The notes under the pieces are model-generated. The model had not been told where the DNA came from. It was given only the letters and a program-made list of their open reading frames with translations, and ran no database searches. The translations under genes and the position numbers were made by a program. A stretch of 64,000 nt of DNA from Paraspadella gotoi (taxonomy: Eukaryota; Animalia; Chaetognatha). Within the stretch, counting starts at the first letter, position 1. The number at the start of each line of letters is the position of its first letter. This document shows positions 25,101 to 28,100 of this stretch, piece after piece. Location of the stretch: assembly GCA_051294375.1 (NCBI GenBank), contig CM119267.1, positions 13,029,081 to 13,093,080 of the forward strand, given 5' to 3'.

Positions 25101-28100
25101 CCGTGTCCGTTTGCGAGTGACTCCAAATAAATGCGTCATGGCAACGGGGGGACATGTGTGATGCCTGGGGTGTGAGGCATCTCCTGACAGCTGGCGCTCA
25201 GGGCTTTGGACCTGCAGTGACCACCCCATGTCACCTTCACACTTTAACCAGCGTGACCGTGAGGGGATTGAACCTGGAACTCATGGTTGGTGACCGAGTA
25301 CTTAGCTGTCCAAGCCAATGGGATGAGCTGAGTTTCATCAAGCTATACGGGAGGCGAATTTAAGATTTGCCACACATGCCCCCCCCAAAACAGCACACTG
25401 GGGTCCTCAAGCCCAAAGTGACTCTCTTGAGAGGAGATGGACTCATTGCCACAGAGAGTGAGCGAGAAGTAGGGCATAGGCGTGGGATGCATACCCTTAA
25501 GGGACGACATGAGTGACAGTACGCAGCGATTGCATGTTCGATAGTAGGGGTCACCACTTATGGAAACGGGGGGACATGCGTGTTGCCTGGTGTGTGAGGC
25601 ATTTCCCAACAGCTGGCACTCAGGGCTTTGGACCTGTAGTAACCACCCCATGTCACTGGCGTGTTTATGCCGACACCATCACACTTTAACCAGCATGACT
25701 GCGAGGGGAATGAATCCGGAACTCACGGTTGGTGAACGAGTACTTAGCTGTCCAAGCCATTTGGACGAGCTGAGTTTCACCAAGCTATATGGGAGGCGAA
25801 TTTAGGATTTGTGTGGACGAACAAATATAACACGCAACCTCGGTCAAACCACTTGACCTTACCAAACTTACCCTCGCTCAAATTCCACCACTTATTTATG
25901 GTCAAAACGTTGACCTTTACGGTCAAACGTTGACCTTGTAAATATCATCATTATAGACTTAGCAGCTGAGCATTTTGATTGTTATTGTTTATAACTTTGT
26001 TGAAGAATAAATCATTCTTACTCTGAAACTTGTTGTGTCCACAATCCACAGCGTACCATATCCCATTGGATAAATATTTTTTATATTCTTTCCTCATTCT
26101 ATAGCTAAGTACTTGACGTTTATTATATTTTAATTTCATAAGATTAATTTGATATTTACTTATCTAAAACGACCTTTCTTTAATGGTCTTCCAATTTCAT
26201 TTTCATTAAAAAACTGAATCTTTAAAAAAAAATTCTAAATTAATTACTCATTGATTACTAAAAATTATTAAAATTATTTTACACCATTAAATTACGAATT
26301 ATCTGGAAATCCTTATGATATAAAATAATTATTCAAGACAGTCAAGAACATGCTCAGGACAGTATTTTTTTCTAATTGGACAAATTGTATAATGAAAAAT
26401 TAAGATTTACAATTAAAAAAATAAATAAAAAATCATTCAGAAATTACTCAACATTACAATAATTCAGATACGCCATTGATTAGACCATTAATAGGGATTT
26501 CTTATGATGTAATTTTTTTTTAAATTCAATCAAGAACACACTGAATTATATTTATTAAATATTTAAAGTATAGTAAAGTTTTTTTTGTGTCACTCGCGAA
26601 CGGACACGGGTTATTAAAACAAAAAAACGTGTCAAAATTAATTATTTTAAAAACTACTCAAATGTTAAAATATGCTGAGCGGTAAAATATATATTTATCG
26701 ATATATTTCACTCTGTACAACTTGACAAACGATCTTGATTTCAGATCGAGTTAAACGGGAAAATGCTTTGTCACCGTCGTAGCTAAAAAGGAAAGGGAGA
26801 AATTAAAGAAAGAACGACGTTTCGATATCGGCATTCACGCGATTTCGCTCACTGATGTGAGAGTTAATGAAAAGCGGAACTAGCTTGACAAGAAGGGAGG
26901 AAAAAGTGCAGAGAGAGAGAGAGAGAGAAAGAATAAAAGAAAGAAAGAAAGAAAGAAAGAAAGAAAGAAAGAAGGAAACGACTGCATTTAACGCCGCGAG
27001 TACTTTTCGGTCGGTCCGTCGGTATGTCTTTCCGTCGGTCTGTCCCACATACGTTAAAAATGCTAGTGCCACCTTCAGGAAATCTTAAAACTATAAAGAA
27101 TATATAACATAGTGTTCTGGCAGCAAGACTTAAAGCTGCCTCGCTGCTGTTCATCGTTCATCGTCTCAATGGCTGAGCAGGTTAAATCATTTCGTTACAA
27201 CCGTGCGTCCCGTGTTCGGTCGCTGGGTGTCCCAGTTCTAGCTTAAATGTGACGGAGCCGGTCTAAACGTGCCAGTGACAGGAGGCGGTTACTGAGAGTC
27301 CGCAGCCCATACGCCAGTTGGTGAGATACCCCGCGCCCCGGCCCAGTCCGGGTGTTACAGGCAATCCTCCCGTTGCAATAGTGAATTAATCCTTTCTTTT
27401 TCGTTGTTTCAATTTATTAGAGACTGGCAAATTTTGAATTTTCATCGGCGTTTTAACAGTTTTAAATAATTGTGAAACAAATGCATAAAGGTAGAGTGTG
27501 TGAGAGAGAGAGGATAAAAGTTTTCCGACACAGAGGTAAGATAGAATAGTGAGGACAGGTTGAAGCTAAGGACAGATTGAGTGAGTTGTGAAAAGAAATG
27601 AGACTTTTTAGAGAGAGAGAGAGAGACAGACAGAGAGATGTACGAAAATTCTAAAAGTCAATTATGAACAACATAACATAACAACATTAATTTGTAAACA
27701 AAATTAGTTTTATGCTATTTAATTTTTGCAGTAGGCAATATTTATTAAGGAGTAGAAAAATTTTTAAATTTAACTTTAATTAAAATTCTAAAAGTGAGAA
27801 ACGAACAACATTATATTAATGAACATTTATGCAATAAAAAAATTAATAATAAATTTTATAATTTATGCAGTAGGCCATATTTATACTAGTACTAAACCAA
27901 TAAATGTTAAAATTTCAAAACAGTTTTTTCTAAGATTTTTTTGCAGATTTGGATTTGTCATAAAAAGTTGATAAAAAGAAATATAACTCTTTTTGAAAAA
28001 TTCCTTCATTAAGTGGGTAAAAAATTAGAAAAAGCTATATTTTAAGCTGAAAATTAACTTTTTATATATTAAATATAGTTTTTTAAATTTTTAAACCACT

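Follow-up and report, generated by a model that had tools for sequence, protein, structure and literature searches.

The Helenus elements are miniature retrotransposons with terminal repeats (TRIMs; TRIMp3), and the parts of the original report that define them (Kojima 2024, PMC10886601) describe short non-coding long terminal repeat (LTR) elements whose LTRs hold tRNA-like boxes (TRGCY..YGG as box A and GGTTC as box B) and which have a primer-binding site (PBS) for the 3' end of a tRNA, together with a G-rich polypurine tract (PPT), duplications of the target site (TSDs) of 4 bp in animals, solo LTRs and several families per genome. Plant LTR retrozymes, according to the sections devoted to them in Cervera et al. 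2016 (PMC4918200) and in PMC5680766, have self-cleaving ribozymes, one per LTR, a PBS, a PPT, 4-bp TSDs and no open reading frame (ORF), depend on a Gypsy-type helper and give a unit RNA without a terminal repeat. In this work we analysed a window of 64,000 nucleotides of the chaetognath Paraspadella gotoi (assembly GCA_051294375.1, contig CM119267.1, positions 13,029,081 to 13,093,080), which contains, on its minus strand, element B, one decayed member of a non-coding LTR retroelement family (TRIM) with a high copy number. Element B resembles both groups in these respects, its tRNA-like part being only partial, and ribozyme, helper and unit RNA being predictions in its case. On balance, we favour the view that the B family is a non-coding LTR element with tRNA-like boxes and a predicted twister ribozyme in its LTRs, which likely moves as a retrozyme.

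The differences are also instructive. Unlike Helenus, element B has about 150 nt past the B box, where the twister fold lies, and it is set beside Helenus by structure and not by sequence relationship. The plant retrozymes of the same sections have a type III hammerhead, a tRNA-Met PBS, a length of 1-1.5 kb and demonstrated RNA circles, whereas element B is an animal element of ~690 bp with a predicted twister, a Trp-type PBS and predicted circles; those sections describe no tRNA-like promoter, unlike the boxes of B. No hammerhead core was found in element B. Since its predicted ribozyme is a twister and not a hammerhead, and its PBS is of the Trp and not of the Met type, B falls outside the strict LTR retrozyme class. 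Metazoan retrozymes, as the relevant part of PMC7761336 presents them, have no LTRs, PBS or PPT. By its structure, element B fits the Helenus, with a tRNA-like part that is only partial, and it likely functions like an LTR retrozyme.

Regarding the ribozyme, the Type-P5 twister (Rfam RF02684) shares with B the UAA site, P2, GC, P4, the UCCNAAGC loop, GANGG and two pseudoknots, and the Perere-3 twister variants of Schistosoma, in the portion of PMC8501958 that treats them, share the presence of P3 and the link to retroelements. The B twister differs from these in combining opening at P5 with P3, in its variable T1 letters, in an Rfam score below the cut-off and in lying inside an LTR, where the others are found 5'-terminally in a non-LTR element. 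A literature search revealed no LTR element that combines a twister with PBS and PPT, no animal LTR retrozyme and no Helenus ribozyme, in texts available in part and with Repbase, most subscription literature and the supplements of PMC4918200, PMC5680766, PMC7761336, PMC6765202, PMC13570524 and bioRxiv 10.64898/2026.07.22.740005 outside its scope. A twister-bearing, tRNA-headed TRIM in an animal, probably an LTR retrozyme in function, is likely a new combination of known kinds.

Structure and ends of element B

A preliminary description of this locus had placed here, on the strand opposite to the related element A, an LTR pair with the same order of parts as in A, and this pair is indeed present on the minus strand (Table 1). 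The Trp-type PBS, the interior of about 185 bp and the G run with ATG before the 3' LTR were recovered as well. Without a 232-bp insertion the element measures ~690 bp, and no ORF of at least 120 amino acids was found across it. The PBS, TGGTGACCCCTAC, starts two bases past the 5' LTR. When the two LTRs are aligned, 205 of 231 columns agree and 26 differ (18 of these by transitions), which corresponds to 88.7% identity and a Kimura two-parameter distance (K2P) of 0.124; there is a single internal gap of 20 nt, equivalent to 25676-25657 of the 5' LTR. This loss is of the size and between the CAC microhomologies described before (GTG/GTG on the element strand); along with P1 and the UAA cut site, it deprives the 3' LTR of P2's 5' strand and of the T2 dinucleotide. 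An origin of the repeats as a chance direct repeat was considered and rejected.

The limit of the element at 25816 given in the preliminary description had to be revised: positions 25812-26043 are a separate 232-bp repeat and the element likely reaches 26050. Past this insertion, CCACA (26046-26050) is followed by GCGT (26051-26054), the same letters as at 25133-25136. Because of this arrangement, and of the CGCCACA found in family contigs, the true span is most likely 25137-26050 with a 4-bp TSD, where the TSD depends on reading across the insertion. The inserted repeat contains internal short repeats, is highly repeated in the public runs and occurs once in the window; its left end is also defined by other contigs, its right end by the window only, and no clear target duplication of its own was seen. 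The 5' hairpin reported earlier opens every one of the nine LTR copies described below except the interrupted 5' LTR of B, in which it is broken. With one twister core lost, this copy could cut in its 5' LTR only; since its 5' tip is interrupted as well, it is likely dead.

Table 1. Features of element B and of the related LTR copies in the window
Feature	Coordinates	Strand	Remarks
TSD of B, 3' side, GCGT on +	25133..25136	-	same letters as 26051-26054
3' LTR of B, 238 bp, TGTGG...CCATG, twister core deleted	25137..25374	-	other contigs pile up loose ends at 25138 and 25374, in agreement with these ends
Join left by the 20-nt deletion, with GTG microhomology	25234..25235	-	intact core present in other family contigs
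PPT-like G8 + CATG	25375..25386	-	counterpart in element A is G7 + ATG
Non-coding interior of B, 184 nt, 10-nt palindrome from 25503	25375..25558	-	
PBS of B, tRNA-Trp type	25544..25556	-	12/13 match with the Trp PBS shown in Fig. S2 of Kojima 2024
5' LTR of B, main part	25559..25811	-	
Twister fold opened at P5, with P3; T1 CCA/UGG, T2 GC/GC	25612..25694	-	predicted
B-box-like motif	25707..25717	-	GGTTCAATCC in 3' LTR and family majority
A-box-like motif TGGCT, without the usual GG at positions 10-11	25748..25759	-	44 nt upstream of B box
232-bp repeat, inverted ends TGTGGAC...GTCCACA, inside the 5' LTR tip	25812..26043	.	left end 25812 seen in other contigs
Likely displaced 5' tip of 5' LTR (TGTGG...)	26044..26050	-	suggested by family contigs continuing CGCCACA behind 25809
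TSD of B, 5' side, GCGT on +	26051..26054	-	
Element A, related full element, TSD TTAT	24173..24821	+	LTRs 24173-24406 and 24592-24821; PBS 24408-24420
Solo LTR of type C, TSD ATAG, decayed twister	27113..27377	+	
Family A solo LTR with intact twister, TSD AGAG	53434..53666	+	
LTR of type D, intact twister	56520..56748	-	ends approximate; compensatory T2, P3, P4, P5
LTR of type E1, twister partly deleted	23649..23885	-	ends approximate
LTR of type E2, decayed twister, T1 CAG/CUG	43612..43837	+	ends approximate

Related LTR copies and copy number

Nine LTR copies lie in the window. They belong to five or more sequence types (A to E) and have their parts in one common order: the two of B, the two of element A and the A solo LTR, and C, D, E1 and E2. 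The LTRs have TG/TA...CA/TA ends and the PBS lies 0-2 nt past the 5' LTR; that of element A also matches the Trp-type PBS (Kojima 2024, Fig. S2) in 12 of 13 letters. All four elements with defined ends have 4-bp TSDs (GCGT, TTAT, AGAG and ATAG). The little primary similarity between A and B noted before was confirmed by blastn (word 7, E up to 1), which gave no match between them; their global alignment still scored above 200 of 200 shuffles, owing to the shared motifs. The nine copies of at least five types, the double-sided changes in twister pairs described below and the uniform TSDs agree with the earlier proposal of a diversified group with a shared architecture, and not a one-off capture. 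The word "old" used for this group suits element B and does not suit element A, whose LTRs differ by a K2P of 0.027. The proposed constraint on unit length was not supported. Only two families have interiors to compare (184 nt in B and 185 nt in A), that of element A carries a tandem duplication of ~55 nt at 24430-24545 which brings its length level with that of B, most B-like copies share only parts of the interior, and the two wasp elements of the same layout discussed below have interiors of ~485 nt.

It must be taken into account that published animal retrozymes are non-LTR and Penelope-derived, and that the window has both Penelope-like minimal hammerheads and a second group of twister-bearing repeats (family F, see the last section). 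The direct repeats could then be pseudo-LTRs or tandem units of a Penelope-type element or short interspersed nuclear element (SINE). This is largely refuted and has a very small probability, since the TG/TA...CA/TA ends, the PBS, the G tract, the solo LTRs and the uniform 4-bp TSDs are marks of integrase insertion; a Penelope pseudo-LTR was rejected on these grounds.

To describe the family beyond this copy, contigs of four of nine public runs (X2, X4, X5 and X9) were aligned to 25000-25950 at 80% likeness, giving 3603, 3386, 1896 and 303 contigs, respectively; X9 is possibly an RNA run, and the comparison draws on those rows of each table that had the best support. For X2 the summed depth, which is not a copy number, was 116 in the unique flank, up to 3.1e5 in the LTR and from 1.1e3 to 9.5e4 in the interior, so element B is plainly highly repeated. 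Diverged contigs cross its junctions (X5 record 19, differing in 51 letters over 25295-25602; X9 record 27, 25325-25548; X2 record 4, 25456-25678), and therefore other B-like copies retain the interior as well as the primer site and the G tract, parts whose absence the preliminary description had named as the argument against its view. The B-like subfamilies differ in parts of the interior, with loose ends at 25464, 25497 and 25530, and most copies have only parts of the interior of element B in common. At the primer site, the majority of the aligned depth reads TGGTGAGCCC, like element A. The intact twister core occurs in other contigs at the place of the deletion in the 3' LTR of B (X2 record 1; X4 joint 25231-25686), and the majority letters of the family give a better B box (canonical), 5' hairpin and P3 than this copy. 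Pattern scans for relatives gave no matches in metagenome and viral contigs, in neither of which animal DNA is expected.

The predicted twister fold

On the element strand, the 5' LTR of B shows P5, UAAA, P2 (GUGU), GAUGG, a 2-bp P1, UAA, P2 (ACAC), GC, a 6-bp P3, P4, UCCAAAGC, P4 and P5, in this order, and the predicted cut falls between U25667 and A25666. The layout fits the published twister order UAA / P2 / GC / P3 / P4 / UCCNAAGC / GANGG, but opened at P5, and the UAA cut site, the GA of L1, the loop and the P2 and P4 stems are all present. P1 has 2 bp and a tetraloop in B and about 1 bp in A and D, a twister being expected to have at least 2 bp. The P5 twister of the preliminary description was thereby found in the fold, and a strict descriptor recognised it in the 5' LTR of B and in none of 2000 of its shuffles. 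The same descriptor was passed by four of the nine LTR copies (the 5' LTR of B, the 3' LTR of A, the A solo LTR and D), by none of the nine antisense sequences and by none of 18,000 shuffles. Moreover, a model trained on A and D only recovered the 5' LTR of B with an E value of ~2e-4 and C with 0.017.

The pairing was compared among seven copies in an unfitted MAFFT alignment, B3' and E1 being omitted because their cores are deleted, and 11 pairs of P2, T1, T2 and P3 were counted, without P4 and P5 because MAFFT had shifted them. Pairing was observed in 97.4% of the 77 cells, which are not independent events as the seven copies are related, against 29-38% in slid controls, and 6 of the 11 pairs are altered on both sides, both pseudoknots included. 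In the pseudoknots, T1 pairs in all of its 21 cells (B has CCA/UGG, types A, C and D have CCG/CGG, and E2 has CAG/CUG) and T2 in 13 of 14 (GC/GC or AC/GU), again with double-sided changes. Since element B is so unlike A, the shared pairs point to selection on the fold. At the family level the fold is present in sense orientation in both LTRs, as seen in the 5' and 3' LTRs of A and in B-like contigs with intact cores, and this copy of B has it intact in the 5' LTR only. Self-cleavage of the intact copies is very likely.

Several results weigh against this assignment. The strict descriptor was composed after the sequences had been inspected, and five of the nine LTR copies fail it. Rfam RF02684 gives the 5' LTR of B only 22.3 bits (E 0.16), below the gathering score of 37.6, and for types A, C, D and E it reports no twister; in its alignment of B, P3 is an insertion outside the model. 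In the search with the A and D model, the antisense of the training copies (~20 bits) lies above the 5' LTR of B (16.5 bits). A first descriptor without terms for P3 and P5 was unspecific, with 7 real matches and 1-4 per shuffle, and with a loose scored descriptor, which separated the top matches only, 3 of 25 shuffled windows reached the score of 31 of B. The P2 strand of family A has 3 nt and is bulged. Finally, the lowest-energy fold of the 5' LTR of B is not a twister, and the nested part of the twister lies 9.5 kcal/mol higher, with the pseudoknots uncounted; the lowest-energy folds of the 3' LTR of A and of D already contain P3, P4 and P5.

The damage to the cores also bears on whether the ribozyme has a function in the element. 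An ordinary Helenus-type TRIM might have captured a twister once from another repeat, for example family F, and carry it now as a dispensable passenger. The A-type twister does resemble that of family F (E ~1e-6), the core is damaged in five of the nine LTR copies, and most published Helenus LTRs in the supplement of PMC10886601, as examined by eye in the parts at hand, show no ribozyme. However, the damage is copy-specific, the deletion in B affecting one LTR while other contigs are intact, and families otherwise without blastn similarity differ by double-sided pair changes, T1 and T2 included, which would need selection during amplification. We therefore regard a passenger as improbable.

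Promoter boxes and transcription

In element B the words TGGCT and GGTTC are 44 nt apart, and in types A, B, C and D a TGGY lies 44-45 nt upstream of the B-box word, which is the spacing of these boxes in tRNA genes. The tRNA-like box of the preliminary description holds as far as these two boxes are concerned and does not extend to a tRNA, as ARAGORN and Rfam found none in element B; a true tRNA gene was rejected, there being two boxes only and no cloverleaf by ARAGORN. The boxes suggest a promoter upstream of the ribozyme, and on the basis of these motifs the B family probably uses RNA polymerase III (Pol III). Pol III is terminated by T runs, and a T4 run is absent from all nine LTR copies. 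The interior of B has a single T4, at 25389, which is private to this copy: the whole aligned depth in X2 (3216 of 3216) and 562 of 586 in X5 are without it.

Some of these data are less favorable to Pol III. The absence of T4 is weak evidence per copy, given that 44-80% of shuffles are also T4-free. The A box of B is weak, only 36 nt separate the boxes in E1 and E2, and the interior of element A does have a T4. Together with the missing cloverleaf and the apparent location of the copies between pieces of a host transporter gene that look like exons, these last three points would suit a retrozyme transcribed by Pol II or by read-through, the boxes being a relic or structural and the ribozymes freeing the unit RNA from any host transcript. 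The canonical B box in the majority of the B family and the conservation of the 44-45 nt from TGGY to the B-box word in four types argue otherwise, and transcription by Pol II or read-through has in our opinion a low probability, slightly below that of a passenger twister.

Proposed life cycle

If the B family is transcribed by Pol III, as favored here, the RNA would run through both LTRs and the twister in each of them would cut once, giving a unit RNA of ~442 nt in B and ~416 nt in A, the same as the repeat period. A host RNA ligase could join the ends, and the resulting circle would be copied from a tRNA-Trp primer by a helper reverse transcriptase, likely that of a Gypsy element. Cutting in both LTRs would leave an RNA without terminal repeat, in which strand transfer is impossible, so that a circle would be the simplest template; PMC4918200 makes the same argument for the plant retrozymes. 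A circular template is marginally preferred. The Trp primer site and the 4-bp TSDs point to a Gypsy helper, which is likely. Priming by the element's own tRNA-like part may be a further possibility. A Pfam scan of 10 ORFs of the window matched only one, an SNF exon, and no retroelement protein was found.

The stability of the predicted unit RNAs speaks to some degree against this life cycle, as it is not unusual, with z scores of -0.7 for A and -1.6 for the decayed B (100 shuffles each), unlike the plant retrozyme RNAs, which the corresponding part of PMC4918200 describes as highly paired. In the main competing explanation, the active twister, acting from the 3' LTR and standing in for a T-run terminator, would form only the 3' end of the RNA, and the 5' copy would be mostly folded otherwise; a terminal repeat of ~100 nt would be kept and reverse transcription would follow the ordinary linear route of a TRIM. 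Besides the stability of the unit RNAs, the lowest-energy fold of the 5' LTR of B suits such a role, and so does the lack of T runs in the LTRs, where many published Helenus LTRs have, by eye, a T run right after the B box. On the other hand, the stems P3, P4 and P5 are part of the lowest-energy folds of the 3' LTR of A and of D, and the 5' ribozyme copy would be transcribed whole, because the LTRs are identical at insertion and the ribozyme lies entirely downstream of the promoter boxes. We consider the linear route rather unlikely, and cutting in both LTRs the better explanation.

Two families in the supplement of PMC10886601 (Data S1), Helenus-2_SyJa and Helenus-2_SyUm of Synergus wasps, resemble B by eye, with the boxes followed by a ribozyme core, a Trp PBS, a G-rich PPT and a TGTGG start; among the Helenus of that supplement only these two have the Trp-type primer word. 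Unlike B, they have an apparent type III hammerhead and not a twister, and interiors of ~485 nt, as counted from the printed lines. The core lies 3' of the B box and comprises a GUC site, CUGAUGA, GAAAC and complementary loops, recognised by eye and not by folding or alignment. In the available text of PMC10886601 neither this hammerhead nor a twister or self-cleavage in Helenus is mentioned, and six twister loop words gave no matches in its supplement, where line breaks can hide motifs. One review, in the portion available, refers to forthcoming work on insect elements that have type III hammerheads, and the wasp case may be known elsewhere.

A wider hypothesis, to which we give somewhat less than even credence, is that animals carry an unrecognised lineage of LTR retrozymes driven by Pol III, tRNA-headed and Trp-primed TRIMs which would replicate via RNA circles made by ribozymes and would freely exchange one ribozyme class for another, with a twister here and a type III hammerhead in Synergus. 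LTR retrozymes are known mainly from plants and with hammerheads; if true, a twister in the true LTRs of a high-copy animal family would bring circle-templated LTR retrotransposition to animals and add a second ribozyme class to it. The eukaryotic twisters would also gain a testable job, and the Helenus and the retrozymes, which were described separately, would be joined. As their Rfam scores are below the cut-off, standard tools miss such twisters, and more may hide in annotated TRIMs, as the wasp example suggests.

Other features of the window

Besides these elements, the window has microsatellites, many repeats and exon-like pieces of a transporter. The latter belong to an SLC6/SNF transporter (sodium:neurotransmitter symporter) and extend over 19141-50520 on the plus strand, of which Pfam PF00209 confirms only 36255-36725; most LTR elements appear to sit between these pieces. 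The Rfam matches to microRNAs in the window were discarded as microsatellite artefacts.

The family F repeat occurs at 39232-39408, 39632-39729, 43849-44035, 44155-44337 and 54477-54643. It has a P5-opened twister without P3, in which the palindrome AGGCCT replaces P1, and an A+T-rich tail, and neither tRNA boxes nor a PBS were seen in it. Its twister reaches 27.6 bits in Rfam, and four copies are found by the A and D model with E values from 6e-7 to 2e-5. Possibly family F represents a tail of the Penelope type, and it may be related to the LTR twister or have been its donor.

Minimal hammerhead cores (CTGANGA...GAAAC) in an A+T-rich context, in the style of Penelope-like pseudo-LTRs, are present at 30714, 32206, 41268, 53199, 59415 and 62819. 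A tRNA-like stretch at 49530-49615 has a canonical B box and a weak match to transfer-messenger RNA, with no call by ARAGORN, and is possibly a tRNA-derived SINE head or a pseudogene. A long inverted duplication joins 28870-30260 and 32663-33985 in three pieces which are 98-99% identical, and a hammerhead core lies near the end of each arm.

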